Shown here: piece by piece, positions 3,465 to 43,517 of the stretch
Layout: every line of letters begins with the position of its first letter
Numbering within the stretch: position 1 is the first letter of the stretch
NCBI GenBank assembly: GCA_035299385.1
Contig: DATGWQ010000075.1
Span: 11,633 to 75,632 of the forward strand
DNA from: Bacteroidales bacterium
GTDB lineage: Bacteria; Bacteroidota; Bacteroidia; Bacteroidales; VadinHA17
Direction of reading: 5' to 3'
Length of the DNA stretch: 64,000 nt
The notes under the pieces: model-generated
What the model was told of the DNA's origin: nothing
Seen by the model: the letters and a program-made list of their open reading frames with translations, nothing else
The model's database searches: none
Position numbers and translations under genes: made by a program

Positions 3465-3473
3465 GGCTTATTT

Positions 3474-6400
3474 ATGAAGAAATCTGTTTCGGTTTTATTT
3501 CTTATTCTTCTGCTAGCTTCCTGTAACCCTGATGTAAGAAAAGGAGAACATTTGTTCACTTTGCTTCCCTCCTCGTCCACTCATATTCACTTTAATAATC
3601 AGCTTACGGAAACTGAGCAATACAATATTATTGAATACCTGTATTTCAATAATGGTGCAGGAGTGGCCGCCGGTGATATTAATAATGACGGGCTGGTTGA
3701 TCTTTATTTTACTTCAAACCAGCTTCCTGACAAGTTATATCTCAACAAAGGGGATCTAAAATTTGAGGATATTACTCAAAATGCAGGAGTTGCCGGAACA
3801 GGAGACTGGAAAACCGGTGTCACTATGGCTGATGTAAATGCCGACGGGCTGCTTGATATTTACGTGTGCGGCGTCGGCAATTACAAGAATTTTCATACAA
3901 GGAACCAGCTTTATATTAATAATGGTGATCTCACCTTTACTGAAAAGGCATCAGAGTATGGTCTTGATTTCAGCGGTCTTTCCACGCAGGCAGCGTTTTT
4001 TGATTATGATCTTGATGGGGATATCGACATGTACCTTCTCAACCATTCTGTTCATACCGTCTCCAGCTATGGAAATGCTTCACTTCGCAATGCGTCAGAC
4101 TCAATTGCAGGCGACAGGCTGTACCGGAACGATTCAAGGGAAGGAACCACAAAGTTCAGCAATGTAACAAAGAGGGCCGGAATTTTTAATAGCCAGATAG
4201 GCTATGGCCTGGGAATAAGCACATGTGATATCAACAATGATGGCTACCCTGATATATATATTTCAAACGATTTTCATGAAAATGATTACCTGTATATAAA
4301 TAATGGGAACGGAACCTTTTCCGAACGCCTCACTGAAATGATCCGCCACACAAGCAGATCCTCGATGGGTAATGATGCCGGAGATCTAAATAATGACGGA
4401 TTCAACGATATCATTGTCCTTGATATGCTGCCCGTTGAAGAGAAAATACGAAAGAGCGCTGGTGGTGAGGATGACTTAGATTTGTATGAATTCAAGCAAC
4501 AGATGGGCTACAATAAGCAGTTCGTGAGGAACACACTGCAGCTCAACCTGGATTGCGGTCTTTTCAGCGAAATAGGAGCCTATGCGGGCATCTGTTCAAC
4601 GGACTGGAGCTGGTCACCGCTTATTTTTGACATGGATAATGATGGACTCAAAGATATCTTCATTTCCACCGGTATCTACAGAAGGGCCAATGACTTGGAT
4701 TACATTAGCTTCCTTACAGGCGGAAACAGGTATTTCCCTGAAAAAGATAACAGCTCGCTAACAGATAAAGATCTATATGATAAAATGCCCGTTTTTCCGA
4801 ATTGTAACTATTTCTACAGGAATAATGGCGACCTGACATTCACCAATATGTCAGGGAAATGGGGCCTGAAGACAGCATCATTCTCGAACGGAGCTGTTTA
4901 CGCAGATCTTGATAACGATGGTGACATGGATGTTGTAACAAATAATATTAACGATAAAGCATTCATTTACAGGAACAACTCGGAAAGAAAGTATGGTAAT
5001 CATTACCTCGAAATTTTGCTCAGGGCCCCATCACCAAACTCTTCAGCTGTCGGATCAAGAGTCACAATCTATGCCGGAGGTCAGATTCAGATGAAAGAGC
5101 AATTCACAACCAGGGGATTTATGTCAGGTTCATCCGGCGTAGTACATTTTGGACTTAGCAGTGAAGCTGAAGCTGATTCACTGGTTATCAGATGGCCCGA
5201 CAGATCAGAACAAAAGATGGCAAATATCAATGCCAACCAGAGGCTGACAATTGTTAAAGATGATATAAAAGCATCTCCATACAAAAATGAATTAAAACCT
5301 GCAAAGAGATTTCAGTCAGCGGCTCCTGAAGGACTGAACTTCATCCATAAGGAAGATCCGTACAATGATATGCTGCAGCAAAATTTCCTGGTGCCGTTCA
5401 GTTTCTCGGCTGAAGGACCGGCCTTAGCTGTAGGCGACCTTAATGGCGACAAACTTGACGACCTGTTCGCGGGCGGTGCCAGAGATTGCACTTCAGCCAT
5501 CTTTTTTCAAAATAAAGACGGGTCATTCAGGAGATTTGACATTCCAATAAGATTAGAGGATAATTTCTCAGACGATGTTGATGCAGTGATCTTTGACGCT
5601 GATGGTGATAATGACAATGATATTTACATTGTGCACGGCGGCAATCAACTGGTTCCGGGAAATCCCTTCCTCACTGATAATCTTCTCATCAATGATGGAA
5701 ACGGGAACTTCGCGAGAAGAAAATTACCCTTCATCTCTCACAATGGATCATGTGTAAAACCCTGCGATTTTGATAATGACGGGGATATTGATCTCCTGGT
5801 GTGCTCAATATCAGTTCCGGGCGTATTCGGGTTGTCCCCTGCCAGCTACCTGCTGGAGAATACCGGAAGTGGCGAATTCAGAGATGTGACCCCGTTAAGA
5901 GCAAAAGGACTCGGGAATGCAGGCATGGTATCCGGGGCTGACTGGCTGGATTATGACCTTGACGGTGATATGGATTTTGCAATAGCCGGACCATGGATGA
6001 GAATAAAGGTTTTTGAAAATATTTCAGGTCATTTCGCAGAAACTGATTCAGTAAAAGGTCTTGAAAACACTTACGGATGGTGGAGCTGCCTGAAAACGAT
6101 AGACATAGATAATGACGGCGACATGGACATGATAGCCGGAAATCTAGGACTCAATTCCATGCTGCACGCATCACCTTCCAAACCTGTTGAACTTTACCTT
6201 GCCGATTTTGATAATAACGGAATCCCCGATCCTATTATATGTTCATACAATGACGGGATAAGCTATCCTTTTTCATCACTGGATGAACTCACCAGTCAGA
6301 TACCTGATCTGAAAAAGGAATTCAGGAGCTATTCCGATTTTGGTAAAAAGACAGTCGTGGATATCTTCGGCTCAAATGTTCTTGAAAAAAGCATACATCT

Positions 6401-6782
6401 TAAAATCACACTTTTTGAAAGTTGTCTTATTCAGAATAACGGAAAAGGAAATTTTGAAGTCATTAAACTCCCTGCGCCTGCACAGTTTTCAGAACTAAGA
6501 GATGTGGTTGTCCTTGCTCCGGATGAAGAGGGGAAAACAGAACTCGTTCTCGCTGGAAACAACAATGCAATACGACCTTCCATTGGCATCCAGGATGCCA
6601 GTTATGGTTTGTTTCTGCAATATGACGCTGAGAATGGATTTATTCCCTTCGGCTCATATCTCAGTGGACTGGTCATAAAGGGAGATGCAAGAAAGCTTGC
6701 TTGCATAATGATCAAAGGAAAGCAGTATGTTGTTGCCGGAATAAACAATGGAGACCTGCAAATAATTTCTCCAGGAAGATGA
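3474..6782 (+). CDS. FG-GAP/VCBS-repeat plus ASPIC/UnbV-type (CRTAC1-like) lipoprotein, paralog 2
   Basis: 1102-aa ORF starting 10 nt after paralog 1. Lipobox LLLASCN. Same repeat architecture (GDINNDGLVDLY, DVNADGLLDIY, ADLDNDGDMDVV; VGSRVTIY..TTRGFMSGSSGVVHFGLS). Collinear with paralog 1, roughly half the residues identical by eye. Confidence 0.85.
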   Translation: MKKSVSVLFLILLLASCNPDVRKGEHLFTLLPSSSTHIHFNNQLTETEQYNIIEYLYFNNGAGVAAGDINNDGLVDLYFTSNQLPDKLYLNKGDLKFEDITQNAGVAGTGDWKTGVTMADVNADGLLDIYVCGVGNYKNFHTRNQLYINNGDLTFTEKASEYGLDFSGLSTQAAFFDYDLDGDIDMYLLNHSVHTVSSYGNASLRNASDSIAGDRLYRNDSREGTTKFSNVTKRAGIFNSQIGYGLGISTCDINNDGYPDIYISNDFHENDYLYINNGNGTFSERLTEMIRHTSRSSMGNDAGDLNNDGFNDIIVLDMLPVEEKIRKSAGGEDDLDLYEFKQQMGYNKQFVRNTLQLNLDCGLFSEIGAYAGICSTDWSWSPLIFDMDNDGLKDIFISTGIYRRANDLDYISFLTGGNRYFPEKDNSSLTDKDLYDKMPVFPNCNYFYRNNGDLTFTNMSGKWGLKTASFSNGAVYADLDNDGDMDVVTNNINDKAFIYRNNSERKYGNHYLEILLRAPSPNSSAVGSRVTIYAGGQIQMKEQFTTRGFMSGSSGVVHFGLSSEAEADSLVIRWPDRSEQKMANINANQRLTIVKDDIKASPYKNELKPAKRFQSAAPEGLNFIHKEDPYNDMLQQNFLVPFSFSAEGPALAVGDLNGDKLDDLFAGGARDCTSAIFFQNKDGSFRRFDIPIRLEDNFSDDVDAVIFDADGDNDNDIYIVHGGNQLVPGNPFLTDNLLINDGNGNFARRKLPFISHNGSCVKPCDFDNDGDIDLLVCSISVPGVFGLSPASYLLENTGSGEFRDVTPLRAKGLGNAGMVSGADWLDYDLDGDMDFAIAGPWMRIKVFENISGHFAETDSVKGLENTYGWWSCLKTIDIDNDGDMDMIAGNLGLNSMLHASPSKPVELYLADFDNNGIPDPIICSYNDGISYPFSSLDELTSQIPDLKKEFRSYSDFGKKTVVDIFGSNVLEKSIHLKITLFESCLIQNNGKGNFEVIKLPAPAQFSELRDVVVLAPDEEGKTELVLAGNNNAIRPSIGIQDASYGLFLQYDAENGFIPFGSYLSGLVIKGDARKLACIMIKGKQYVVAGINNGDLQIISPGR

Positions 6783-6790
6783 ATAAAGGC

Positions 6791-7903
6791 TTACCGCCAG
6801 GTTTTGCCTTCAAGAAATCTATTAAGATCATTCAATTCAGGACTATGCCCGCTCTGAATGTAGAAGCCGGTCACTGCATTGGCAAGGAGAAGGGACTGAT
6901 AAAGGTCCAGGTTGAAGAAGGTAGAGTAGCAAAATCCTGCGTTAAAGTTATCTCCTCCCCCTGTAAGTATTTTGGGATCCTTGCAAAAGAAAGTTTCACA
7001 GGAATTATACTCAGAACCATCAAAAGCTATTGAGTCCTTTATCCTGTGGATAAGCAGTAAATCGCAGTTGCATGCATAGTGAAGCTCTTTTATAAACGAT
7101 TCGTCCGGAAGATGGTGGGATATGCCGAGCGCTTTAGCAACGATAATCGATTCATTCACATTAAGGCTGAGTATCACCCTGAAGTATTTCCTGAATTTCC
7201 AAAGCAGGGACATGACTTCCCTTATTTGTTCCTTTGATTTCCTTGAGCAATCAGACAAATCGGTGAAGAAGACACGCCCTTTAACCGGAGATATCCGGGG
7301 AAATATTGCATTGAGAAACCATGTCCATATTTCGGTTGAATTCTCAATCTCGCTCCAGTTCAGGAATGCAGTGAGAAATTTCCCTTCGGCCATCTTCCTG
7401 ATGCTTTCTGTTCCCAGCACTTCCCTCAGAGTCTTACTATCCAGGCATTTGTAAGGGCCTGGATCGAACATGATCACTTTCGAAACATCAAACTCGAGGG
7501 CTGTGGCTGTAATGGTATCGGCAACGCTGGACAGCGAGCAGTTAGGTGAAATATTCCTGAAGACAGGTAAAATCTCCGGGTAACCGAAAGTCCCGATACA
7601 ATCAGACCTGACGCCGAGTAATCCGAGTGCATTGGCAGTAATTACCATGTTGCCGCCGGGCCTTGAAACCTTGGTTTCGAGCTCAAGGCCGCAGCTTCTG
7701 GTGCCCAGGTTTTTAAGAAAATCACCGAGTTCAGCAGTGGAGTTGAAGTAACCGGCAGTATCATCTTCATTCCTGTAACTGATTATCCTTACCAGTGTAT
7801 CAATACAGGCATCGAAACCCATCAATGCAGGAACATCTTTCCTGTCGAAATTCTCAACCTCTGAGATGATCTTCAAAACTGAATTCCTGAATTTTCCTTC
7901 CAC
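6791..7903 (-). CDS. PfkB/ribokinase-superfamily carbohydrate kinase (substrate unknown)
   Basis: 370-aa ORF. C-terminal TGGGDNFNAGF resembles the PfkB GAGD ATP/anion-hole signature. N-terminal GFDACIDTLV resembles ADP/ATP sugar-kinase beta1. Lies next to a NagB-like gene. Confidence 0.5.
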   Translation of the reverse strand: MEGKFRNSVLKIISEVENFDRKDVPALMGFDACIDTLVRIISYRNEDDTAGYFNSTAELGDFLKNLGTRSCGLELETKVSRPGGNMVITANALGLLGVRSDCIGTFGYPEILPVFRNISPNCSLSSVADTITATALEFDVSKVIMFDPGPYKCLDSKTLREVLGTESIRKMAEGKFLTAFLNWSEIENSTEIWTWFLNAIFPRISPVKGRVFFTDLSDCSRKSKEQIREVMSLLWKFRKYFRVILSLNVNESIIVAKALGISHHLPDESFIKELHYACNCDLLLIHRIKDSIAFDGSEYNSCETFFCKDPKILTGGGDNFNAGFCYSTFFNLDLYQSLLLANAVTGFYIQSGHSPELNDLNRFLEGKTWR

Positions 7904-7914
7904 TGTGAAATCTT

Positions 7915-8634
7915 TTAGATCCCGGCTGCCTCCTCGTCAATGACAAGAAAAGAATTAGGATGAAGCTTCATGGCAGAAGCAGGAAGTGATTCAGACGGGT
8001 CTTCATTCAAAAGCCTCGATGCGACAGCAGCTTTCCTCACACCCGAAAGCTGGAGAATAGCTGTTTTGGATTCCAGGATATGCTTTATGCCAAGTGTTAT
8101 CCCCCTTGTCAGCCTGGCACTGCCGGAAAAATACTTCTGTCCCACGGATTTAGTTGTATCGTCAAGCGTCACAATATGAGAATACAGCCCGAAAGAAGTC
8201 CCAGGTTCATTCAGTCCAAGGTGCCCGTTCATGCCTGCACCGAGTAAGATCATGTCAACCGGCCCATGTTCTTTAATGAAGCTGTCGGTTTTCCTGCATT
8301 CTGATTCGAGATCATCCGACTCACCGTCAAAAAAGCAGAAATTCTTTTCTGAGAATTTAATCTTGCTGAAAAAATGCTTCTTAAGAAACGAATAGCAGTT
8401 TTCGGATTTCATCTTCCCGAGACCTACCCATTCATCCAGCCCAACGATCTTTGATTTTTTAAAGCTTACTTTCTTTTCTTTTTCCAGGCGAACAAGCTGT
8501 TCAAAAGTTCCGATCGATGTTTCGCCGGCAGGAAAGCAGAGCAGTGCTTCAGGTTTACTGTTAATAATTTCACAGATCATCCAGGCGCTTTTCTGAGAAA
8601 GCTCCGAATAGTCTTTGCAGGTTATAATTTTCAT
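7915..8634 (-). CDS. Glucosamine-6-phosphate deaminase / 6-phosphogluconolactonase family (NagB-like) protein
   Basis: 239-aa ORF. FPAGETSIGTF, LGAGMNGHLGLNEPG and ITLGIKHIL match the NagB/SugarP_isomerase family layout. Confidence 0.8.
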   Translation of the reverse strand: MKIITCKDYSELSQKSAWMICEIINSKPEALLCFPAGETSIGTFEQLVRLEKEKKVSFKKSKIVGLDEWVGLGKMKSENCYSFLKKHFFSKIKFSEKNFCFFDGESDDLESECRKTDSFIKEHGPVDMILLGAGMNGHLGLNEPGTSFGLYSHIVTLDDTTKSVGQKYFSGSARLTRGITLGIKHILESKTAILQLSGVRKAAVASRLLNEDPSESLPASAMKLHPNSFLVIDEEAAGI

Positions 8635-8644
8635 AGTTTTTATT

Positions 8645-8710
8645 TTTAACTCAAAGAGCGCAGAGAAATTTTTGCGTTCCCTGCGTAACTTCTTTGCGTA
8701 CTCTGGTTAA
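8645..8710. repeat. Degenerate short-period (about 8 nt) TTTGCGT-type repeat patch between two minus-strand genes
   Basis: Reads ..caaagagcgcagagaaatttttgcgttccctgcgtaacttctttgcgtactctgg.. with repeated TGCGT units. Same flavour as the array at 52778-52850. Confidence 0.4.
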
Positions 8711-8716
8711 ATGGTT

Positions 8717-10237
8717 TTAGATTTTTAATTCTTCCCAGCCTTTACGGTACTCCCGTTTAACGAACTGGTTTGCCTGTTCAAAGTTGGTGATCCTCATGTT
8801 TTCGCCGTCCCATTTGTAGTTAATGTACCTTCCCGGGAAAACATATCCCTCCATCTGGCCATAAACCGGGTCCTGTCGCTTAATTTTCTCCTGGATATTG
8901 AAACATCTCAGGAGCAGGTTCCCCATGAGAACCGTTTCGGAAAGTGGGCCCGAATACCCGACAAACGGAGAGTCAACTTCCATGTTACCGTAACCGGCAA
9001 TGCATGCGTCTATCCATTGCCACCAGTGTCCGTCCATGTCACCTTCGACACGCGGGTATTTTTTAGGCACATTTATTTCCTTGTTCCTCGAAATCGGAAG
9101 AAGCACGGGGTTCCTCCCACCCCAACCGCAACCGGCCTTTCCTTTGGTTCCTATGAATAATGTCCCGCCTTCATAATCGCCCAGGTTCGGCCAGTCCGCA
9201 AGGACTTCATTCATATTATCCTTATCATCCAGCTCAAGAGGACGTTCGGGTGTGATGCCGCCATCCATCCAGTAAAGATCGAGGTCTTTGCCGTTTTTGA
9301 GCTTGTACCTGAACCTTATTGAACTCGAAACAGGACCGCTTTCCGGGTAAATGCCTTCTATGAATATACCTTTGTATACAGTACTTGCGCTGCCGGAAAC
9401 TTCAGTAGGATAGCCTAGATTAAGCAGCTTGAAAGGCGGTCCCATTATATGGCATCCCATGTCGCCGAGAGCGCCGGTGCCGAACATCCACCATCCCCTC
9501 CAGTTGAAAGGGACAAGGTTATCAATATAGCCCGGATCTTCGGCGGTGCCGAGCCAGAGGTCCCAGTTAAGCTCCTTCGGTACGGGCGGCCTCGATGAAG
9601 GCCATGCAATGCCTTGCGGCCACACGGGCCTGTCCGTCCAGCAGTACACTTTGGTTATGTCACCGAGAACATCAGCCTCTATCCACTCCCGCAGCGTTCT
9701 CATCCCATCACATGAAGCCCCCTGGTCACCCATCTGTGTAACGACCCGGTACTTTTCCGATGCCTGGGTAAGAATACGTGCTTCATAAATATCATGAGTA
9801 AGGGGTTTCTGAAGGTAAAGATGTTTTTTCAGCTGCATGGCAGCGAGTCCGACGACTGCATGATTATGATCGGGGATTGCGACGGATACAGCATCAAAGT
9901 TTTTGCTTTCCTTATCAAACATCTCCCTCCAGTCATGATAGTATCCTGCTTTCGGGAATTTCTTCCTTGTGTCTGCAGCCCTCCTGTCATCGACATCGCA
10001 GAGAAATGCAACCTCCGCATTCTTTTTGGGCGCGATTGAATAATGGCGGATGTCATCAGCCCCTTCACCCCCGCAACCGACAGCTGCAATCAGGAGCTTG
10101 TCACTTGGAACAACATGGCCCAGCCCGGAAACTGCAAATGAAGGGATAATGGTGAGTGCTGCCGCTCCTGTGGCTGCTTCCCGGACAAATTCCCTGCGGG
10201 TAACTGTCCTTTTTTCTGATCCTGGATTCTTTTTCAT
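8717..10237 (-). CDS. Gfo/Idh/MocA-family NAD-dependent oxidoreductase with twin-arginine (TAT) signal
   Basis: 506-aa ORF. N-terminal TRREFVREAATGAAALTIIP is a TAT motif. Rossmann start LLIAAVGCGGEG. Typical GFO_IDH_MocA central region (PDHNHAVV..LQKPL). Confidence 0.8.
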   Translation of the reverse strand: MKKNPGSEKRTVTRREFVREAATGAAALTIIPSFAVSGLGHVVPSDKLLIAAVGCGGEGADDIRHYSIAPKKNAEVAFLCDVDDRRAADTRKKFPKAGYYHDWREMFDKESKNFDAVSVAIPDHNHAVVGLAAMQLKKHLYLQKPLTHDIYEARILTQASEKYRVVTQMGDQGASCDGMRTLREWIEADVLGDITKVYCWTDRPVWPQGIAWPSSRPPVPKELNWDLWLGTAEDPGYIDNLVPFNWRGWWMFGTGALGDMGCHIMGPPFKLLNLGYPTEVSGSASTVYKGIFIEGIYPESGPVSSSIRFRYKLKNGKDLDLYWMDGGITPERPLELDDKDNMNEVLADWPNLGDYEGGTLFIGTKGKAGCGWGGRNPVLLPISRNKEINVPKKYPRVEGDMDGHWWQWIDACIAGYGNMEVDSPFVGYSGPLSETVLMGNLLLRCFNIQEKIKRQDPVYGQMEGYVFPGRYINYKWDGENMRITNFEQANQFVKREYRKGWEELKI

Positions 10238-10254
10238 CTGATCGGACTTAATCG

Positions 10255-11010
10255 TTATTTCTTCCTGGCTGGTTTTGCAACAGGTTTGCCCAGCTGCCTT
10301 GCGGGAGCCTTCTTCAGTGGCTTGACTGCTATCTCTTTAAAGAAGACCACATCCTTGTCGCTGTGATTCTGCACACCCATATAGCCTGCATTGGGCCTCG
10401 GCCCCCTCTGAGGTTCGAAATCGAATTTCCTGTCGGGGACAGGATCACCTTCTTTGTAATCGGTGACTTTTTCGCCATTCACATAGACAATGGTACGCGG
10501 ACCATCGAGCGTTATCTCAAAGGTGTTCCACTCCGGTCCGGGCTTCCCGTTTTTGACAAGCGGCTTAGTGAGCGAATAGATAGTTCCCGTGTAATGATAT
10601 TCATCCTCATCGGACAATTCGGGCTTATTATCGATCTGTATCTCATAGCCATAATGCACAGGCATCCATTCTTCGCGGGGTTCGACGGGGATACGCACGA
10701 AAACTCCTGAATTGCTGTTTTCATCCCTCATCCTCCACACTATCCTGAAGGTGCAATCGCCGAATTTCTCGGCTGTCCAGTACAGCAGTCCCATGCCACC
10801 CGTGGATTTCAGCAACCCGTCTTCAACATAATGAGTACCGGGTCCCGCCTGCTTCCAGCCCTTAAGGTCCTTGCCATTGAAGAGCTGCCTCCATTCACCA
10901 TCGCTTTTTCCCTGTCCTGATGCCGCAAAACAGATCAGAAACATAAAACCGAGCGTTGTAATGCGGTTCCATGTCAATGTTCCGCGACTGCTTTCATTTT
11001 TCGTTTTCAT
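10255..11010 (-). CDS. DUF1080 (3-keto-disaccharide hydrolase-like, concanavalin-type) secreted protein
   Basis: 251-aa ORF with signal peptide. WRQLFNGKDLKGWKQ.., NSGVFVRIP, YEIQIDN and GYMGVQNH..VFFKEI are characteristic of DUF1080. Lys/Pro-rich basic tail. Confidence 0.75.
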   Translation of the reverse strand: MKTKNESSRGTLTWNRITTLGFMFLICFAASGQGKSDGEWRQLFNGKDLKGWKQAGPGTHYVEDGLLKSTGGMGLLYWTAEKFGDCTFRIVWRMRDENSNSGVFVRIPVEPREEWMPVHYGYEIQIDNKPELSDEDEYHYTGTIYSLTKPLVKNGKPGPEWNTFEITLDGPRTIVYVNGEKVTDYKEGDPVPDRKFDFEPQRGPRPNAGYMGVQNHSDKDVVFFKEIAVKPLKKAPARQLGKPVAKPARKK

Positions 11011-11020
11011 GATATAATTC

Positions 11021-12265
11021 TTAAGTGTTAATATTATTTTTTATCGTAGCGTTCTGAATCAAAGGTTTTGCCTTATAACTTACTATCAGCACATAAATCA
11101 AAGGGATGTACAGAACAAGCATCCCCGGCCTCAGTCCGATCATATCCTTCAATTTGCCTATCAGAAGTGAAAACACAGCCCCTCCTGCAATTGCCGTGCA
11201 TAGTATTCCTGAAAAGGATCCGTGAAACCTTTCGATGCTGTTGAGCGCCAATGAGAATATTATACCGTACATTACAGAAAGGCAGAATCCCAGTGCCGGG
11301 AAACCTATCAGTGCCGTCTGCCTGTTGCCGAACAAGGTTATTCCGAGGATCAGAAAAGCAGAAAAAGTAAAGATCCTTAAAACAATCTTGCTGTCGATTA
11401 TCCTAAGCAGGAATAAGCCCGGAATACATCCGACTGTCATCATGCCCCAGAAAAGGCCAACGGTGGCAGCTCCCCTGGTTTCGGGAACAAGCCCGTGATA
11501 GGTCCTCAGGAATTCGGATATCCAGTTTGCAATGCCCTGTTCCAGTGCGACATATGAAAATATGCCGAAGAAAAAAAAGATTACCACTCCCCTTCTGAAA
11601 AGATCCGCATGCGTCTTCCATGGCCCGACTATCTCATCCTCTTTACGGGTAACGGAGGGGAATCTGACTGATGCAACAACAATTACCAGGAGAATGCTTA
11701 TCAGAACAAAAAGAAGATACATGGAAACCCATGGCATTTGTTCCGGTACACCGCCAGATATTATATTGAATATTCCATTTTTATTACCTGAAGCAAGATT
11801 CGTTACCAGCCAAGAATAGACGAACGGGCTGATGAATGATGCAAGGCCGAAAACCAGCTGCACTATGAGGTTATTGAAAGCAAAATGCCGCTCCCCGCCT
11901 GTTACCCGCAGGAGCGGAAAAAGCGCCACCTGCAGCATGGCCATGCCGCTACCGATCAGGAACAGGGAAAAAAGGAATACCGGGAAGACGGGTCTAAGAG
12001 AGAAAAGAAGTGAACCTGCAAATGCGAGGATCCATGCCCCCGTAAGGCTCTTCCTTTCACCGAACCTCTGCACTATCATTCCTGAAGGAATTGACATCAG
12101 TGCATAAGCTATGAAGAATGAGAAAGGCAGAAGGCCTGTCATGGTCCCGGTGAGATTGAAGCTGTCGCTTACGTTCGGATTGATCGATCCGAGAATATTC
12201 GTAAGGAACGAAATGGCAAAAAATATCAAAAATATAAGCGAGACAAGAAAATATCTTTTTTCCAT
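11021..12265 (-). CDS. MFS sugar transporter (FucP / glucose-galactose transporter-like)
   Basis: 414-aa ORF, about 12 hydrophobic segments. N-terminal FFAISFLTNILGSINPNV..LLPFSFFIAYALMSIPSGMIVQRFGERK resembles the FucP/GluP family. Confidence 0.8.
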   Translation of the reverse strand: MEKRYFLVSLIFLIFFAISFLTNILGSINPNVSDSFNLTGTMTGLLPFSFFIAYALMSIPSGMIVQRFGERKSLTGAWILAFAGSLLFSLRPVFPVFLFSLFLIGSGMAMLQVALFPLLRVTGGERHFAFNNLIVQLVFGLASFISPFVYSWLVTNLASGNKNGIFNIISGGVPEQMPWVSMYLLFVLISILLVIVVASVRFPSVTRKEDEIVGPWKTHADLFRRGVVIFFFFGIFSYVALEQGIANWISEFLRTYHGLVPETRGAATVGLFWGMMTVGCIPGLFLLRIIDSKIVLRIFTFSAFLILGITLFGNRQTALIGFPALGFCLSVMYGIIFSLALNSIERFHGSFSGILCTAIAGGAVFSLLIGKLKDMIGLRPGMLVLYIPLIYVLIVSYKAKPLIQNATIKNNINT

Positions 12266-36251: not shown

Positions 36252-37319
36252 TTATTTTCTTTTGATCGAATTGATAAAGGTGTATGAAATAGAAGCGCCC
36301 ATTTCAAACTTATTCATTTTCAATTCATTGTCCTGGTAATAATAATCATTCAGCAAAAATTCCTTCTGCCTTCCATTGCCGGGATTTGCCAGGCTCGTAA
36401 GGCCAAGGTAGTATCTCAGGTCAAGATATAATCCAACATTTTTTATCCTGTACCCGATCCCTGCACCCGCAAGCCATTCAAAATTCAACCTGTTCCGGGC
36501 TTCGATGACGTTTATGCCGTTGACATAATAAGTCATGTTTGCAGCATTGTCAGTCTTGCTTACGTTGGCAGTTGTTTTGGTCAGGTACAATGCACCCAGC
36601 CCTGAAGCAACATATGGTTTGAGATTCTTTGCAATCGTAAAATACTTTTTGGCATATACCGGGATCTCCACGAATTCTGGCCATTCCTGGTAATACAGGT
36701 CAAGGTCGGGTTCCCTTGAATAACTTTTATAATAGTAGGATGTCCACCACATCAGATCTGCGTTCAAAGAAATATTCCTGTCAAATTCTACCTCTGCCCA
36801 GCCGTAATATGAGAAAAAGTATGCTCCGGCTCCATATGGTTCGCTGTTCAGAGAACCATCCGGCAGAGAAAAGACCTTTGTCGTGTTGAAACCTGTCCAG
36901 AGAATGACATTCCTAATGCCAAGAGATAATGCGGGATGAATTTTATATTTCCTGATAAGCCGGTTGTATGATTCAAAATTATCATCTTCATTTAATTCAT
37001 AATGAGGATATTTATGAAGCAATACCTCCGCCGAACGCCTTGCCTGAAGCTCGTCAGGGATCTCGGTGTATGCTTTTGTCAGAAGCTCCAGGGCATGCTC
37101 CCTGTCCTTCCTTGCAAGATCCCTGTTATTCAATAATTTCTGAACCGAAGCGGTGCATTCCTCGTATAATCCCTGTTGATACAATTTTTCTGCATCGGCA
37201 AGTTTTGTTTTGGGATCCGGATTATAAAAGGTAACGGTCTGACTCTGAATGGAGAAACCATTGATCAGAAAGATCAACAGCAAGCATAAGCGTATATATC
37301 CAGAGTTATTTTGAATCAT
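36252..37319 (-). CDS. Secreted protein: TPR-like helical N-domain plus C-terminal outer-membrane beta-barrel-like domain
   Basis: 355-aa ORF. Signal peptide (LCLLLIFLINGFSIQSQ). Helical region (AEKLYQQGLYEECTASVQKLL..ALELLTKAY). Then alternating-hydrophobic, aromatic/Gly-rich strands (AGAGIGYRIKNVGLYLDLRYYLGL, FEMGASISYTF). It starts 5 nt after the upstream stop. Confidence 0.6.
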   Translation of the reverse strand: MIQNNSGYIRLCLLLIFLINGFSIQSQTVTFYNPDPKTKLADAEKLYQQGLYEECTASVQKLLNNRDLARKDREHALELLTKAYTEIPDELQARRSAEVLLHKYPHYELNEDDNFESYNRLIRKYKIHPALSLGIRNVILWTGFNTTKVFSLPDGSLNSEPYGAGAYFFSYYGWAEVEFDRNISLNADLMWWTSYYYKSYSREPDLDLYYQEWPEFVEIPVYAKKYFTIAKNLKPYVASGLGALYLTKTTANVSKTDNAANMTYYVNGINVIEARNRLNFEWLAGAGIGYRIKNVGLYLDLRYYLGLTSLANPGNGRQKEFLLNDYYYQDNELKMNKFEMGASISYTFINSIKRK

Positions 37320-37324
37320 ATAAA

Positions 37325-40159
37325 CTATCTTTTTTGGGTCAGTGTCGTATCGGAGATGATACCCGGTATCTTTTCACGTATCATATCAGCAAGCTTCATA
37401 TATGATGTTTCCCATATCCTTATGCTTTTATCGGATAATCCTGCGACCAGTTTGTCATCCTTTGTAAAAACAAGTGATCTCACCCGTCCGGGAAGGTTTT
37501 TAAAGTGCACCACTCCGCCGTATGTGTTATTCCTTGAAAAATACTCATCGACATAGAACAGGCTTATGGTTCTATCCCGGCTTGCCATAGCCAGCAGCTT
37601 ATTGTCATTGCTGAAAGCCATTTTGTCAATACCGGATTTATTCTGTTCCACCCGGTACTCAAACCGGACCGGATCTTTCCTGCTGAACACACCCATCGAT
37701 CCGGATTGATAACCGACTACGAGCTTCCTGCCTGCCATCCCCATTGATAAAGGTTTATCGTTAAAGGACGCCAGGTTCTCAGTTTTACCGTTCTTCATGA
37801 TATTTACTGATCCGTCACTGCAAGCATAAAATACTGTATCAGGACTGCAAAAAAGGACAGAAAGTACTTCTGAGGAAACCCGGAAGGTTTTCAATAAAAC
37901 GGGAGAATCTGATACATTCCATATTTTAATGATGCTGTCGTTAGCGCCTGTAACGAGGTACCTGCCACGATCACAAAAGTCAGCTGACCTGATGATTCCG
38001 CCTGATGGAATTTTGAAAGGTTCAAATCTGCCGGTTCCCATTTTAGTCAATTTCCATAAACTGATTTCACCGTTATCGCACTGGGTAAGAATGTTTTGAG
38101 ATACTCTGTCAATTTGAACAAACCTCACAGGTGAGCCTGTATTGAGCTGTTCGCTCCCCGATACTTTTCCGTCAGAAGTCCATCTGCAAAATTTGCCGTC
38201 AAGATCAGCGGTTGCGATAAATAAGGAATCATCAGCTATACTCCATATCTCAGATCCTGTTCCCGTAAAAACGGAATGTCTTGCACTGTCCGCGACTATC
38301 CATGCTTTATTCAGGGCTTCATAGATCACCGGGTCGTAATCCGGTCCACCATTGTCAAGGTTGTATTTATATGAAAGGTATGCCAGGGTGCAGCCTATTT
38401 TCGGAGTATTCTCCAGTGAGACGTTACTGAGTGAGCTCAGAGCCAGGTTCTGCGCTTTTGAAAGATTGCTCATCCTGGTGGATGCAGCTTCAGCTTCAAC
38501 AGCTTTCTGCCTTTCATGTTCTGCAACGTTCCGCTGTTCTGTGGCAATTCGTGCCTGTTCAGTTGATTCGATGGTCAGTTTTTCTGCAAGGCTCTTCTGC
38601 TGGATTGCGAGTTCTTTCTGTAAAAGAGCTTCCTTCCTCGACTGCTCGGACTGTGACTGTGCCACGAGGGCAATCTGCTCATTCTTCACTGCCAGGTCCT
38701 TTGACCGGACTGCTTCTTTTCTTGCTGAGTCAGCAACCATCATGGCCCTGACGGCAGAGTTCTTCTGCTGCTCGGCAATATCCTGCTGCACGACGGCATT
38801 CCGCTTTTCGCGCATCGCCCATATCGTAAAGAAAGAGAGTATGGCGATCAGCACAGCCGCTGAAATTATCATCGCATTCTGGCGGCGCCTTTTGGCCTTA
38901 TGAATTATTCTTTTGCTCTGGGAAATAAACTTTGTAAGCTTTTCATTCAGGAACAGCTTGTCCTCGTAAGGGGCAATATATTCCAGATCGTCTGAATTCA
39001 GGTAAAGGTTTCTTCGCTCGAAATTATTCCAGCTGTTTTCAATGAATTGCCTGATCTCCAGAAGCTCTTTTTCGACAAGGGTGATCTTTTCATATATGCA
39101 TGAAGCAAGACTGTCGTGACGAAGCTCGTATCTTCCGTGTTCATCCTTGTCGCGGAGGATCCTGAGCTTTATAAATTTCTGGATGAGGTCTTTCACCTTT
39201 TCATTTCCAAGCTCTTTCCCCAGGGTCCGGGTATATTCGATCACTTCATCCTCTGTTATCTGGTGCTTGGTGCCATGTACCGATACAAAAGATTTGAGGA
39301 TGACCAGGCCTGCATCAGGATCATCGAGCCTGGATATCTGCTCCTCGAGGAAAGCTCCAAGCAGGTCTTTCACATCGCCGATCTTTTCGGTATGTGCAAG
39401 GCTCAGCCTTATTACATCCTCATTCTCCTCAGAAGCTATCCTGAAAAGCTTGTCGAGATAGACCTGGAGGTAAGTCAGCTCGACCTCAGGATTGTCCGGG
39501 TTCAGTTTTTCCAGGATGATCTTTGACAGGCCCTCATCGGTTGCAATCCTGTTTACTTCACAGGGTCCCTCAATGGCTTTTGCAGCATTCTGCCTGGTCA
39601 TTTTCTCGATCCTTATCCTGTTATCGAGGAAATCAGGTATTATCTTTTCAAATTCCGTGAAACCGGCAAGATACTCCTCACGCATGGAGAAAATCAGCCG
39701 GCACTGGATATCCGAATCTATGATCTTCTTTACTGTCTGAATGAATTCCTCCCTTTCGGCACGGGACCCGAATATGAATACTTCCTCAAACTGGTCAAGA
39801 ATGAGAAAAATGGGTTTGAAATGATCGAGATAAACTGACCTGAGGAGCTTAAAGATGCTTTTCGAATTTTCACCGGGAATACTCGAAAGCATATTCCGTT
39901 TCAGCGATTCATAAAGGCTCAGGTTTATGTTCGATCCCCTCCTGATATTTACAGGGAGCCAGTCGGAATCGTTGAACTTGTTTGCAAGGCCGCAATTTAT
40001 CAATGATGATTTTCCGGTTCCTGAAATTCCGTATACAACAAGTATCCTGCTCTGAAAGACTCTTGAGTGAAGCTCTTCGATCTCATTGTCGCGGCCAAAG
40101 AAAACATTACGGTCTTCTTTGGAATAGCTGTCCAGGAATTTGAACGGGCTCTTTTTCAT
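37325..40159 (-). CDS. STAND-like P-loop NTPase, single TM helix, long coiled coil, C-terminal WD40 beta-propeller
   Basis: 944-aa ORF. FFGRDNEIEELHSRV..ILVVYGISGTGKSSLINCGL (Walker A) and PIFLILDQFEEVF (Walker B). TM at about aa 430-452 (KAKRRRQNAMIISAAVLIAILSFFTIWAMREKRN). About 110 aa Q/E/K/A-rich coiled coil. WD40-like blades (ISLWKL, IKIWNV, SIRIWET). Confidence 0.8.
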   Translation of the reverse strand: MKKSPFKFLDSYSKEDRNVFFGRDNEIEELHSRVFQSRILVVYGISGTGKSSLINCGLANKFNDSDWLPVNIRRGSNINLSLYESLKRNMLSSIPGENSKSIFKLLRSVYLDHFKPIFLILDQFEEVFIFGSRAEREEFIQTVKKIIDSDIQCRLIFSMREEYLAGFTEFEKIIPDFLDNRIRIEKMTRQNAAKAIEGPCEVNRIATDEGLSKIILEKLNPDNPEVELTYLQVYLDKLFRIASEENEDVIRLSLAHTEKIGDVKDLLGAFLEEQISRLDDPDAGLVILKSFVSVHGTKHQITEDEVIEYTRTLGKELGNEKVKDLIQKFIKLRILRDKDEHGRYELRHDSLASCIYEKITLVEKELLEIRQFIENSWNNFERRNLYLNSDDLEYIAPYEDKLFLNEKLTKFISQSKRIIHKAKRRRQNAMIISAAVLIAILSFFTIWAMREKRNAVVQQDIAEQQKNSAVRAMMVADSARKEAVRSKDLAVKNEQIALVAQSQSEQSRKEALLQKELAIQQKSLAEKLTIESTEQARIATEQRNVAEHERQKAVEAEAASTRMSNLSKAQNLALSSLSNVSLENTPKIGCTLAYLSYKYNLDNGGPDYDPVIYEALNKAWIVADSARHSVFTGTGSEIWSIADDSLFIATADLDGKFCRWTSDGKVSGSEQLNTGSPVRFVQIDRVSQNILTQCDNGEISLWKLTKMGTGRFEPFKIPSGGIIRSADFCDRGRYLVTGANDSIIKIWNVSDSPVLLKTFRVSSEVLSVLFCSPDTVFYACSDGSVNIMKNGKTENLASFNDKPLSMGMAGRKLVVGYQSGSMGVFSRKDPVRFEYRVEQNKSGIDKMAFSNDNKLLAMASRDRTISLFYVDEYFSRNNTYGGVVHFKNLPGRVRSLVFTKDDKLVAGLSDKSIRIWETSYMKLADMIREKIPGIISDTTLTQKR

Positions 40160-40168
40160 TTCAACATA

Positions 40169-41251
40169 TCATAATGCGCCCGGTGATATAAGCGAAACCA
40201 TCTGCCTGAATTCGGTCAGGAGTATGTCGTAATTCTTCAATGACCTGAGATCCACTTTCTCCGTTACTTCGGTTCCCAGGTACATCAGCTGGTCATTCCG
40301 GAATTTGGAATACATGAAGATGTCCTTTTTAATATCGAATTTCTCCTTTGAATCGAGTATTTCCGTGCTTGTGTCAATGATCAGCGGAGAAAGATTTAGA
40401 TAAGTGTCGATTGATTTTATACTCTTCAGGAGAAGCACTGAGTGGCTGTCTGTATAAGTTGATTCGTCAAACTCATTAGCCTTGAAATCGGAATCGGAGC
40501 TGTTGAGCAGATCGAAGATATGATGGAATGAAGCTTTTGTCATTTTCGATTTGAAGACTTTGATTTCCTTCACTGAAACCAGCCTGTATTTTGCAAGGAA
40601 TGATATCCTGGATAAAATAAAGGTCAGCTTTTCTTCATATTCGACGCATCTCTTTTCGATTTCCTCCTGGGTAAGGTTGATCTGGTAATGGCCTATTTCG
40701 TTCCGTTCCGGGACCCAGAAATCCAGCGCGGCATAAAATTTATCATCACAGCAGCCGGAAAGCTCGGGCATAAACCATTCTATCTTCTGGGAAGAAAACA
40801 TGTTTCCCATAGCCCTTATCATCCAGGAATAATTGCCGAGGCTAAGAACAAGGAACCTGTTTTTGAATTCCTTAGCAAAGCTTTCACTGATCTTTATGCT
40901 GCCTTCCTCGCACATTTTTGAAAGCTGCGAGAGCATAACGAATGACAGGAACTGCATTGACCTCTCAATAGTTTTGAAAATCTGGTCAAGGCGCATCCTG
41001 TCGAGCTGCCGCATGGACCCTGAGAAGAGCCTCCTGAGCTCCACTCCTACCGGCCACGGAAAATTCTTGATAATCAGGTCTGCAAGTATCCTGTAATCAG
41101 GCAGGTCGCCTTCATCTTCATCGGTAAGGACCATTTTTGACAGAGATGCCTTATGTTTCAGCATTTCATCAAAAACTTTCCTTATAAGGTCTTCATTTAT
41201 GCTTGCCATCCCCTTATTATGACTAGCTAAATTTATAACTTTTTTATTCAA
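40169..41251 (-). CDS. Hypothetical 360-aa protein, first gene of the STAND cassette (no recognisable domain)
   Basis: The ORF-track start at 41251 is TTG; an ATG alternative lies at 41209 (MASINEDL). No signal peptide or TM. Helical N-half, mixed C-half. Its stop lies 9 nt before the NTPase start. Confidence 0.6.
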   Translation of the reverse strand: MNKKVINLASHNKGMASINEDLIRKVFDEMLKHKASLSKMVLTDEDEGDLPDYRILADLIIKNFPWPVGVELRRLFSGSMRQLDRMRLDQIFKTIERSMQFLSFVMLSQLSKMCEEGSIKISESFAKEFKNRFLVLSLGNYSWMIRAMGNMFSSQKIEWFMPELSGCCDDKFYAALDFWVPERNEIGHYQINLTQEEIEKRCVEYEEKLTFILSRISFLAKYRLVSVKEIKVFKSKMTKASFHHIFDLLNSSDSDFKANEFDESTYTDSHSVLLLKSIKSIDTYLNLSPLIIDTSTEILDSKEKFDIKKDIFMYSKFRNDQLMYLGTEVTEKVDLRSLKNYDILLTEFRQMVSLISPGAL

Positions 41252-41383
41252 CCAAGCAAATTAGATGATTTAATTGATTTTCTGAAAAAAAATTCCCTTG
41301 CACTGCACCCCTGCCCCCAGGGGCATAGCATCAAACTAAAAGATCGCGATTTTATGTATTAGGTTGATTATCATTCTGTTATT

Positions 41384-41410
41384 CTCCCTCCTTTTGAAGG
41401 AGGGGTGGCC
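41384..41410 (+). repeat. GC-rich hairpin element (CCCTCCTT ttg AAGGAGGG + GTGG tail)
   Basis: ctccctccttttgaaggaggggtggcc. 8-bp stem. Same family as the elements at 26848 and 28699. Confidence 0.5.
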
Positions 41411-41579
41411 AGACTGAAATCTTTTTACTTCAGGAAGAATGCAATACTGGACGGGGTGGTTGATTATCAGAAGGAATCCCCAGTTACATGTAGGATTATA
41501 GCAGGTCTATAAAAGAAGTGTATAAAGATTAGCTTAAAAAATAAGGGGAGGGCAAGACCTCAGAAACAATGAGATCTCA

Positions 41580-41623
41580 CCCTTTCCCTTATTGTTTTAA
41601 AGGGAAAGGGCAGGGATAGGGTT
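41580..41623 (+). repeat. GC-rich hairpin element with 11-bp stem and CAGGGATAGGGTT tail
   Basis: CCCTTTCCCTT attgtttta AAGGGAAAGGG cagggatagggtt. The tail resembles GCAGGGGTGGGTT of the 45-nt element. Confidence 0.6.
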
Positions 41624-41669
41624 AAGATGAGAGATATTTTTTCTTAAATTTCCCCTCAAATGATCCAGA

Positions 41670-43517
41670 ATGGATGCTCAGAAAAGAATAAGAACAGCTG
41701 TTGATAAGGTCAATGAAGCCGTCTGGGCCCAACGCTACAGCGATCCGGGATCACTGCAGGGCACAATCAGCAGCAATCTTGCAAAGGCCGAAAAAGCAGG
41801 ATATGAGAGGGGAATAGCCTATGCAAATCTTAATACAGCTTCTGTTCTCTTTCACTCCTCACAGAACGATCAGGCATTAATACATCTGAATAAAGCTCTT
41901 CAGTGGTTCAGCAGGCACGAGAATGAAAACGGATACGTGAGGGCCATCCTCCTGCAGGGCAATGTACATGAAAGCTATGGTGACTATGAACAAACACTTA
42001 CGCTGTGGCTCCTCGCCCTGAAAAAATCGAAACAGATAAATTACAGGGAAGCAGAATCTGAAGCCTGCAACCAGCTTGGGATTGTCTATTTCAGGCTTGC
42101 AGATTATGAGAAATCGCTCGATTACCTGACGACAGCACTGAAAATAAGGGAAAAGGAAAATGATGAAAACGGGATGGCCTCTTCCCTCAACAGGATCGGA
42201 ATGGTGCTGAGACAAACGAAAAAATATTCCGAATCTCTTCAATATTATTTTAAAAGTCTTGAGATAAGGGAAAAGAACAGGCAATTCTCGGCCATTCTCT
42301 GGACAATGCTTGGCATAGCGAGCACCTGCGAGGAATCAGGAAATCTTGATGAAGCGCTGGAATATTACACAAAGGGAATGGAGAGCAAGGATCTCCCCTG
42401 TTTTGTACAATGCCTTATGGGAGCCGGAAGGATCCATAGCCGGAGGGGTGAAAATGTGCTAGCGGAAGGAATGCTTGAAGAGGCATCAAAGAAAGCTGAG
42501 CAATCGGGCACACTATATCTTCTTGCTGATGCATATTATTCGCTTGCAGCACATTATGAAAGAACAGGAAAGTTTTCCGGGGCGCTTGACCATTACAAAT
42601 TATACCAGAAAACGAAGGAATCACAGCTTAGTGAGGAATCGCAGCGAAAACTCAGGAACATAGAGATTTCGCATGCTATTGAAAAATCAGAGCAGGAAAA
42701 AGAGATCTTCCGCTTGCGGAATGTCGAGCTGAAGCAGGCATATGACATAATCGAGGAGAAGAACAAGGACATAACCTCAAGCATAAACTATGCCAGCAGG
42801 ATCCAGGGTGCGATACTCCCCAGGTTATCGGATATAAAGGGCCTTTCTGGGCATGTTTTCGTACTTTATCTGCCCAAGGATATCATAAGCGGGGATTTTT
42901 ACTGGTTTTCAAGGATGAAGGATCAGATAGTCCTCGTTGCCGGCGACTGTACAGGTCACGGTGTTCCCGGGGCCCTGATGAGCATGCTTGGTATTTCTTT
43001 CCTTGAAGAGATAGTGAACCGGCAGGGGATCAATGAACCAAATGTGATCCTCGATGAACTGGGAAAGGAGATCAGGAGAGCACTCAGGCAGAAATCAGGT
43101 GAAACGAAAGACGGGATGGACATGTCGCTCTGCCGCATTGATACGAAATCGGGCAGGCTTCTGTTTTCAGGGGCTAATAACAATCTTTACCTTGTGAGGG
43201 ATAACCAGCTTATCGAGATCAAGTCCGACAGGATGGCTGTTGGCTTTAATGAGGATGTCAACAGGAAATTCAGCCTGCAGGAGGTTAACCTTGCCGGCGG
43301 GGACATGCTGTACATGTTCTCAGATGGCTTTGCCGACCAGTTCGGCGGCGAGCATAACAAAAAATACAAATATTCAGCTTTCAAGGAATTCCTTCTGGGT
43401 ATCCATAATCAGCCGCTCAGCGAGCAGAAATTATGCCTGAGGAAGGAGTTTTTTTCCTGGAAAGCTGAATATGAGCAGGTGGACGATGTGCTCGTAATGG
43501 GCTACAGGTTCAAATAG
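41670..43517 (+). CDS. TPR-repeat plus coiled-coil plus PP2C/SpoIIE-type serine phosphatase (RsbU-like)
   Basis: 615-aa ORF. N-terminal about 300 aa of TPR-like repeats (..LGIVYFRLADYEKSLDYLTTALKI.., ..IGMVLRQTKKYSESLQYYFKSLEI..). Then YASRIQGAILP, GDFYWF, VAGDCTGHGVPGALMS, SDGFADQFG and QVDDVLVMGYRF (SpoIIE motifs). Confidence 0.85.
   Translation: MDAQKRIRTAVDKVNEAVWAQRYSDPGSLQGTISSNLAKAEKAGYERGIAYANLNTASVLFHSSQNDQALIHLNKALQWFSRHENENGYVRAILLQGNVHESYGDYEQTLTLWLLALKKSKQINYREAESEACNQLGIVYFRLADYEKSLDYLTTALKIREKENDENGMASSLNRIGMVLRQTKKYSESLQYYFKSLEIREKNRQFSAILWTMLGIASTCEESGNLDEALEYYTKGMESKDLPCFVQCLMGAGRIHSRRGENVLAEGMLEEASKKAEQSGTLYLLADAYYSLAAHYERTGKFSGALDHYKLYQKTKESQLSEESQRKLRNIEISHAIEKSEQEKEIFRLRNVELKQAYDIIEEKNKDITSSINYASRIQGAILPRLSDIKGLSGHVFVLYLPKDIISGDFYWFSRMKDQIVLVAGDCTGHGVPGALMSMLGISFLEEIVNRQGINEPNVILDELGKEIRRALRQKSGETKDGMDMSLCRIDTKSGRLLFSGANNNLYLVRDNQLIEIKSDRMAVGFNEDVNRKFSLQEVNLAGGDMLYMFSDGFADQFGGEHNKKYKYSAFKEFLLGIHNQPLSEQKLCLRKEFFSWKAEYEQVDDVLVMGYRFK

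Follow-up and report, generated by a model that had tools for sequence, protein, structure and literature searches.

The 64,000-nucleotide stretch of DNA analyzed here (the window; contig DATGWQ010000075.1 of a Bacteroidales bacterium of the VadinHA17 lineage) carries a compact cassette of three or four genes, the central one of which (37325..40159, minus strand) is an open reading frame (ORF) encoding a 944-amino acid (aa) signal transduction ATPase with numerous domains (STAND). From the N terminus onward, this protein comprises an nSTAND1 NTPase, a short hydrophobic helix, a helical stalk and a WD40 beta-propeller, and its two halves are predicted to lie on opposite sides of the inner membrane. 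The STAND gene starts 9 nt past the stop of a gene for an upstream protein (UP; 40169..41209, minus strand) and ends 5 nt ahead of the start of a gene for a predicted outer-membrane protein (OMP; 36252..37319, minus strand). Coordinates given below for parts of these three genes refer to the minus strand.

The NTPase module, predicted to be cytoplasmic, spans residues 5-352 (39104..40147) and matches Pfam family PF20703 with 148.5 bits against a cut-off of 27.1 (E 5.3e-43), which assigns it to nSTAND1. G44, S46, G47, G49 and K50 are invariant in its Walker A motif, GISGTGKS (residues 44-51; 40007..40030), as are D122, Q123, E125 and E126 in the Walker B region, FLILDQFEE (residues 118-126; 39782..39808). 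Based on the intact P-loop and the Walker B acidic residues (LILDQFEE, residues 119-126), which are invariant across 39 homologs, the ATPase is proposed to be catalytically competent. A PDB sequence search with the NTPase returned only P-loop-level matches to UvrA and no solved structure close in sequence. Behind this module lies a cytoplasmic helical region (residues 353-428; 38876..39103) with an Arg-rich juxtamembrane end, KAKRRRQN. A reading made earlier from the letters and ORFs of the window (the sequence-only reading) had placed the ATPase on the N-terminal side of the hydrophobic helix and a coiled coil and WD40 propeller on its C-terminal side, and this layout is borne out by the Pfam nSTAND1 match, the stalk and the WD40 repeats.

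The predicted transmembrane helix occupies residues 429-449 (38813..38875) and is, as described earlier, a single 21-residue hydrophobic segment, AMIISAAVLIAILSFFTIWAM, between KAKRRRQN and REKRN. Its Kyte-Doolittle (KD) mean over 19 residues is 2.41, and the next best value in the 944-aa protein is 1.28. On the Hessa scale the helix sums to -2.2 kcal/mol, all other positions being at +7 or higher, and there is no second transmembrane candidate. It weighs against a membrane span that a KD value of 2.41 was also reached by 154 of 5000 shuffles (3%) of the single sequence. Because this test is weakly significant, the case for the helix rests on conservation.

A word-indexed search returned more than 2000 homologs. 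The best 120 full-length sequences are mostly 940-990 aa long and 47-100% identical to the query, with metagenome bins of Bacteroidales and Bacteroidia as their main source. Exactly one strong hydrophobic segment (KD >= 2.21) is present at residues 425-448 in 120 of 120, with a shared motif consisting of KA[KR]RRRQN, variable hydrophobic residues, LSFF[TS]IWA and [RK]E[RK]xNA. An exhaustive search with an NTPase-only query (residues 1-428, helix excluded) yielded 28,809 representative clusters with E <= 1e-3, of which 1,122 had E <= 1e-30, and the best 149 clusters (50% identity) were taken as family representatives. Right behind the NTPase, a segment of KD >= 1.8 is found in 141 of these 149, and a further five, in which the Arg-rich flank is likewise present, reach 1.59-1.78 (about 146 of 149). 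The 15-residue flanks carry a mean net charge of +6.1 (N side) and +1.0 (C side), and N exceeds C in 139 of the 141 representatives. In the window protein itself, the N side has seven Lys/Arg and no Asp/Glu, and the C side nets 0 to +1 depending on the residue range counted. Since this charge bias obeys the positive-inside rule, an N-in/C-out orientation is predicted, in agreement with the need of the NTPase for cytoplasmic ATP. The hydrophobic segment and the positive-inside pattern of a type II single-pass protein are thus both present.

Two outcomes had been named in advance as speaking against a membrane-spanning helix, namely homologs lacking the segment and a buried helix. The former is countered by the retention of the segment among close homologs and family representatives alike, and nothing points to the latter. 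In the homolog alignment, the N-terminal half of the helix varies among hydrophobic residues, and this free variation indicates a lipid-facing span rather than a buried core helix. The AlphaFold2 (AF2) model contains one continuous helix, 406-482, running through residues 429-449.

Nevertheless, it should be considered whether the segment might be a buried or oligomerization helix or a monotopic anchor, both halves of the protein then being cytoplasmic as in an ordinary cytosolic STAND-WD40 protein. WD40 domains are mostly known from cytosolic proteins, and the shuffle result fits this explanation as well. Moreover, nSTAND1+BetaPropeller forms without a transmembrane (TM) segment have been published and are tabulated 427 times in the data of Kaur et al. 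(eLife 2021; PMC8195603). However, such a location is difficult to reconcile with a 21-residue uncharged segment of -2.2 kcal/mol that has an RRRR flank on one side only, and whose position, length and charge asymmetry are conserved while its residues vary. It also leaves unaccounted for the linked gene for an OMP with a signal peptide and the periplasmic GldM domains found at the same place in sister proteins. We therefore regard a wholly cytosolic protein as very improbable.

The region behind the helix is modular within one NTPase subfamily and may consist of one to several WD40 propellers, GldM domains or an FGE-sulfatase domain. Behind the same NTPase and helix, GldM_3rd and GldM_4th were observed in P0300, P0354 and two genes of the L022 array in genome G093, GldM_1st together with GldM_3rd and GldM_4th in P0250, and GldM_1st alone in L038, while L026 has an FGE-sulfatase (C-type-lectin-like) domain at this place (here and below, P and L numbers denote sister proteins and loci). 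GldM/PorM domains form the portion of the T9SS (type IX secretion system) and gliding motor that spans the periplasm (PMC5790014). Their occurrence at the propeller position constitutes the strongest in-silico argument for that position being periplasmic.

Tandem arrays of four nSTAND1-TM genes with differing periplasmic modules were seen in L022 (G093:C64:3000-22154) and L038 (G214:C1:126000-145900). The modules in these arrays are GldM_3rd+4th, GldM_1st, and single and double WD40 propellers, and both arrays include a gene for a PP2C phosphatase. The L022 array lies behind a UP gene and is interleaved with RhuM and AAA_14/DUF4143 genes.

Sequence identity drops in steps across the helix. Among 38 homologs, the mean identity to the window protein is 69% in the NTPase, 71% in the helical region, 52% in the TM helix, 48% in the stalk, 45% in the cap helices (residues 579-630) and 34% in the propeller. 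In the compared cassettes, the partner proteins are 67-80% (UP) and 33-42% (OMP) identical. Hence, the predicted cytoplasmic parts evolve slowly and the predicted extracytoplasmic parts fast, which fits both exposure and a diversifying sensor. The propeller was also checked for periplasmic disulfides; several alignment columns are 66-82% Cys, but with no invariant column among them, and with most of these Cys missing from the window protein, the check was uninformative. Taken together, the charge bias, the GldM swaps, the linked OMP gene and the drop in identity across the helix support the proposal of the sequence-only reading that the propeller is periplasmic, and it is highly probable that the STAND protein adopts the predicted N-in/C-out topology in the inner membrane with the propeller in the periplasm.

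The helical stalk (residues 450-581; 38417..38812), predicted to be periplasmic, has Ala (or Ser) at each seventh residue from A448 to A553. In-register Ala occupies 14 of 17 heptad positions, a count matched by 0 of 20,000 shuffles, and Ser two. The Ala heptads start at A448, within the outer end of the membrane helix, and their columns are invariant or nearly so in 39 homologs. Their run length is 16-18 heptads in 117 of the 120 close homologs, and the periodicity is visible by eye even in a 27%-identical paralog of the same genome. The AF2 model of the full protein (predicted local distance difference test, pLDDT, 72.6) comprises helices 406-482 and 492-581 with a low-confidence break at 474-508, two cap helices and the propeller. 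If residues 450-581 formed a straight rod, it could reach up to about 20 nm, which is comparable to the width of the Gram-negative periplasm.

The stalk leads to a seven-bladed WD40 beta-propeller (residues 638-916; 37412..38248), which is likewise predicted to be periplasmic. Pfam WD40 and beta-propeller families match between residues ~640 and 925, including PF00400 with 70.4 bits, and the AF2 propeller consists of 27 strands with pLDDT of ~85-92. In Foldseek searches it resembles the seven-bladed WD40 domains of G-beta and PkwA (E ~1e-17, TM-score 0.7-0.8 on the target, root-mean-square deviation ~3 Å), the closest solved bacterial WD40 being that of the kinase PkwA (5yzv).

The downstream gene encodes an OMP of 355 aa. 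It has a predicted signal peptide, MIQNNSGYIRLCLLLIFLINGFSIQSQ, whose charged n-region and hydrophobic core were read from the sequence, a helical TPR-like N-domain (residues ~28-140) and a barrel (residues 143-311 and beyond) assigned to OMP_b-brl_2 by Pfam (PF13568, 37.2 bits against a cut-off of 27). Residues 37-112 give a weak TssQ-like match. The gene order UP, STAND, OMP recurs with differing flanking genes in L001, L004/L005, L006, L030, L032, L033 and L037. By BLAST, no OMP homolog was found beside forms with GldM, FGE-sulfatase, multi-propeller or unassigned C-terminal modules. The barrel gene thus tracks the form with a stalk and a single propeller, which suggests that the barrel and this module may interact.

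A second nSTAND1 gene of the same genome, on contig C336 (L031), encodes a 1021-aa protein with a 27% identical NTPase followed by a helix, an Ala-heptad stalk and WD40 repeats. The operon around it consists of genes at 3404-5368, 5365-8430, 8440-9501, 9498-10685 and 10709-12000, encoding, in this order, a 2TM-HAMP-SpoIIE protein, the nSTAND1-TM-stalk-WD40 protein, an OMP_b-brl_2 protein with a signal peptide, a 395-aa protein of unclassified family and an Ig-like (CHU_C-associated) protein. The order HAMP-SpoIIE, STAND, OMP, 395-aa protein is kept in three other genomes of the same family (L043-L045). The 395-aa protein of this paralogous cassette (L031:9498-10685) has no family match, nor does a 439-aa protein encoded directly downstream of a double-propeller form (L024:7163-8482 in G048:C1). 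Both may be further envelope partners.

UP is predicted to be a cytoplasmic protein and belongs to no recognized family. Its ORF is open from a TTG at 41251 (360 aa), and the homologs begin at the Met that matches the ATG at 41209, so that the 346-aa form is the likely product. UP contains no TM segment or signal peptide (maximum KD 1.19), and its close homologs are 76-96% identical. Even where the NTPase is 35-41% and UP 23-30% identical, as in distant members, the UP gene lies ahead of the NTPase gene. The AF2 model of UP (predicted TM-score, pTM, 0.86) consists of a helical domain (residues 1-207), a beta domain (209-312) and a C-terminal helix. Foldseek searches with this model against PDB and BFVD gave nothing at E < 0.1, the best structural resemblance being a weak, OB-fold-like one to ribosomal protein S12 (probability ~0.5, E > 0.5).

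In the distant relative L027, a Peptidase_C14 caspase (E 7e-8) with its AGHG and DSC motifs present is joined to the front of the UP-homologous region, and in L028 UP carries an N-terminal extension with a weak caspase match. The UP homolog of L027 also gives sub-threshold matches to HSDR_N (E 0.001) and a phage endonuclease (E 0.011). The linkage of UP to the NTPase gene, the caspase fusion and the motif pattern described next would fit UP being an NTPase-docking output module, possibly with an activity of its own when alone and serving as an adaptor where a caspase is attached.

UP contains the motif RNEIGH (40688..40705), that is, R169-N-x3-H174 followed by Tyr, which is of the Rx4H form. 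In the UP alignment, N170 is invariant, and R169 and H174 are retained in 90% or more. The UP-only relative L025 (27% identical) has RNKLQH, and the motif is lost in L027 and L028, both of which are N-terminally extended. An Rx4-6H motif is the hallmark of HEPN RNases. UP shows such a motif, but no HEPN fold or family-model match was obtained, and it was not filed as HEPN because neither the fold nor the profile searches gave support. The motif is kept as a lead.

The cassette is separated from a divergently transcribed gene for a TPR-SpoIIE (PP2C) phosphatase of 615 aa (41670..43517, plus strand) by a 418-nt intergenic region (41252..41669), where promoters are presumed to lie. The phosphatase gene is a recurrent neighbor of the cassette. 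Its homologs, 54-56% identical, occur at the same divergent position in L001, L006 and L032; PP2C genes also adjoin the cassette in L022, L026, L036, L038 and L040; and a HAMP-SpoIIE gene lies within the same operon in L031 and L043-L045. L004 lacks a PP2C gene, and no such gene was found in L030 or L033. Of the 13 SpoIIE genes in the source genome (G000, ~5 Mb), one adjoins each of the two nSTAND1 loci.

The complement of 13 SpoIIE-type PP2C genes, several of them for proteins of more than 1000 aa, is unusually rich. The Bacteroides thetaiotaomicron control genome gave no SpoIIE match.

The recurrence of PP2C raises the possibility that the cassette is a Ser/Thr-phosphorylation pathway and not a conflict system, the STAND protein being a scaffold or sensor for PP2C and UP a phospho-regulated substrate or adaptor. 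The proximity of a phosphatase gene to both nSTAND1 loci, with only 13 such genes in 5 Mb, and its repeated association with the cassette elsewhere are in line with this proposal, as is the high conservation of UP. However, the cassette showed no kinase, STAS or anti-sigma partner, PP2C is missing from some loci as noted above, and the patchy distribution of the system, described below, and its caspase-fused relative speak against it. We consider a phosphorylation pathway improbable; it is compatible with the favored topology and could represent its output branch.

With regard to distribution, of 151 genomes sampled across the order, 9 gave a match to the NTPase-plus-helix query, as did 16 of 81 in the family. 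Within the same genus, five of ten genomes have any match, three of them with a gene of the window type. The copy number ranges from 0 to 8 per genome, and there are tandem arrays in which one UP gene is followed by WD40 as well as GldM forms, with RhuM and AAA_14/DUF4143 genes alongside. A pattern this patchy and copy-variable marks an accessory system with fast turnover, of the kind to which conflict and defense systems belong. A housekeeping role was considered as the leading interpretation and rejected because of this pattern.

Based on these results, we propose that the STAND protein is a receptor-like, single-pass type II inner-membrane STAND NTPase with a cytoplasmic ATPase. One unbroken helix would run from residue 406 through the membrane (429-449) into the stalk, whose fixed length of ~17 heptads would hold the WD40 propeller in the periplasm, towards the outer membrane. 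There, the OMP barrel with its periplasmic TPR-like domain is the probable docking partner of the propeller, and on the cytoplasmic side UP appears to co-evolve with the NTPase and probably binds it as an output or adaptor protein. A trigger at the envelope, either ligand binding or a disturbed contact between barrel and propeller (for example, by a phage or other invader), would alter the packing or oligomeric state of the stalk, and the single helix would pass this change to the NTPase, which would then switch or oligomerize and engage UP. It is our guess that PP2C resets the switch or reads out its state. Domain order, helix conservation, charge bias, domain swaps, gene linkage and patchy distribution come directly from the computations; topology, signaling direction, ligand, protein-protein contacts and output are elements of this model that we infer. 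For the picture as a whole (sensing from the outside that is passed to a STAND switch, UP acting as output and the barrel as partner in the periplasm), we estimate a probability of about 0.6.

Several results weigh against this picture. In the AF2 model, the NTPase has low confidence (pLDDT 45-60), and pLDDT falls below 50 at stalk residues 474-508, so that the stalk may kink or fold back, which would shorten its reach. UP has no significant match in Pfam, NCBIfam, PADLOC, PHROGs or PDB sequences and no recognized effector fold, and its conservation is unusually high for the effector of a conflict system. PADLOC-DB 2.0 returned no defense match for the cassette apart from a marginal one to mad8 for the STAND protein (E 0.0085), UP and OMP giving nothing. 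In addition, the window cassette and L006 have the same flanking genes, which implies that part of the history of the cassette is vertical.

The main rival explanation keeps the topology and reverses the direction of action. It holds that the NTPase cycle works from the inside out to assemble or remodel an envelope-spanning link, in the manner of TolA, TonB or GldM, by which the inner membrane is coupled to outer-membrane partners, and that the protein is a structural or maintenance device and not a sensor. A fixed stalk length together with a dedicated partner in the outer membrane, found in two paralogous families, would suit such a device, as would the lack of a recognizable effector and a PP2C link that fits regulation better than cell killing. 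Fusions to GldM domains point in the same direction, since these domains transmit force outwards in the T9SS/gliding motor (PMC5790014). On the other hand, the patchy and copy-variable occurrence and the tandem arrays are unlike a housekeeping envelope machine, the caspase-fused UP of a distant relative points to an effector output, and free swapping of the periplasmic module on a constant cytoplasmic part is typical of sensors. Besides, STAND NTPases are known as slow switches or oligomerization platforms and not as motors. An inside-out device is thus unlikely in our opinion, and outside-in sensing is preferred.

Outside-in sensing may be extended to a more specific and, at this stage, rather doubtful proposal. 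The cassettes could represent NLR-like receptors of Bacteroidota (NLR, NOD-like receptor; NOD, nucleotide-binding oligomerization domain), in which swappable periplasmic modules would survey the envelope for invaders and signal through the ruler-like Ala-heptad coiled coil and the single helix to nSTAND1 and from there to UP as a so far undescribed effector family (possibly an Rx4H nuclease, and a caspase in the distant relative), with reset by PP2C. One such module would be the WD40 propeller, docked to its own outer-membrane barrel. The copies of GldM D1 or D3-D4 might then serve as integrated decoys for the gliding/T9SS motor, of which phages may make use, and the FGE/C-type-lectin-like domains would be alternatives to them.

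STAND/NLR proteins are the textbook intracellular pattern-recognition switches of animals, plants, fungi and bacteria, and in their accepted mechanism the repeat sensor and the NTPase share one compartment. The results described here point to a large bacterial branch, about 146 of the best 149 representative clusters, in which the sensor is predicted to lie across the membrane. This would require a different activation logic, with a transmembrane relay through one helix and a coiled coil. If true, NLR-type surveillance would extend to the periplasm and outer membrane, the sites first affected by phage adsorption, DNA injection, contact-dependent toxins and envelope damage. The cassette also brings in two unclassified proteins, UP and the TPR-barrel OMP.

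The architecture of the window protein is not new. The nSTAND1 family was named by Kaur et al. (eLife 2021; PMC8195603), whose main text mentions it once without discussing the TM form. In their Figure 2 source data, 'nSTAND1+TM' occurs 412 times and 'nSTAND1+TM+BetaPropeller' 278 times, with rows from Bacteroidales (including a 953-aa protein), Cytophagales, Verrucomicrobia, Acidobacteria and actinobacteria, usually behind TIR+DrHyd or caspase. The string 'nSTAND1+TM+GldM' is nowhere in the accessible supplement text of that study, and the accessible parts of the work of Kaur et al. (PMC8195603; PMC7159879) described neither the Ala-heptad stalk nor an OMP partner or a link to PP2C. The literature searched on STAND proteins with transmembrane, periplasm or GldM contained no paper discussing this topology for nSTAND1, and no discussion of UP, the OMP partner or the PP2C link was found in the literature searched. 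Within the same scope, the gene set around the STAND gene appears to be undescribed. Because the layout was already tabulated in 2021, what makes the present analysis worthwhile is its topology argument, the set of partners and a mechanism that can be tested, rather than the architecture.

Compared with canonical cytosolic STAND/NLR proteins (Apaf-1; Avs, bNACHT), the window protein likewise contains a P-loop NOD, helical domains and a C-terminal seven-bladed WD40 propeller, and its full-length model aligns loosely to Apaf-1 (3j2t, 3shf; Foldseek). The difference is that a predicted membrane helix and a stalk of ~130 residues are inserted between the NOD and the repeats, so that the repeats could not fold back on the NOD to autoinhibit it. 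In addition, there is no N-terminal effector domain, the NTPase starting from residue 5, and the candidate output is a separate upstream gene. Such a topology is biogenetically feasible, as M. tuberculosis PknD (kinase-TM-NHL propeller) and receptors of the ToxR/CadC type combine a large catalytic or output domain at the cytoplasmic N terminus, one helix and an exported sensor, the output module being a STAND NTPase here and not a kinase or DNA-binding domain. Among nSTAND1 conflict systems (PMC8195603, PMC7159879), the NTPase family and the layout are the same, and at least one distant relative of the present cassette has a caspase partner; their usual partners are TIR+DrHyd, caspase or effector-associated domains, whereas the partner here is the unclassified UP.

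The PCTM ParA systems also have a cytoplasmic NTPase, a single TM helix (type II) and a variable periplasmic domain (bioRxiv 10.64898/2026.10.19.760177). They include an upstream gene for a presumed effector (a caspase in some) and sometimes a downstream extracytoplasmic protein, and sensing of envelope or periplasmic perturbation has been proposed for them (bioRxiv 10.64898/2026.10.19.760177). Only the organizational theme is common to the two, since the NTPase there is ParA (SIMIBI class) and here a STAND protein of AAA+ type. The periplasmic modules there are pentapeptide, TPR and SPOR and here WD40, GldM and FGE, and no outer-membrane barrel partner is described there. Finally, GldM/PorM (PMC5790014) resembles the window protein in layout, with an N-terminal membrane helix and an elongated periplasmic region that reaches an outer-membrane-associated partner. 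The window protein itself has no GldM domain, and GldM, in contrast, has no cytoplasmic NTPase and works together with GldL as a proton-driven motor.

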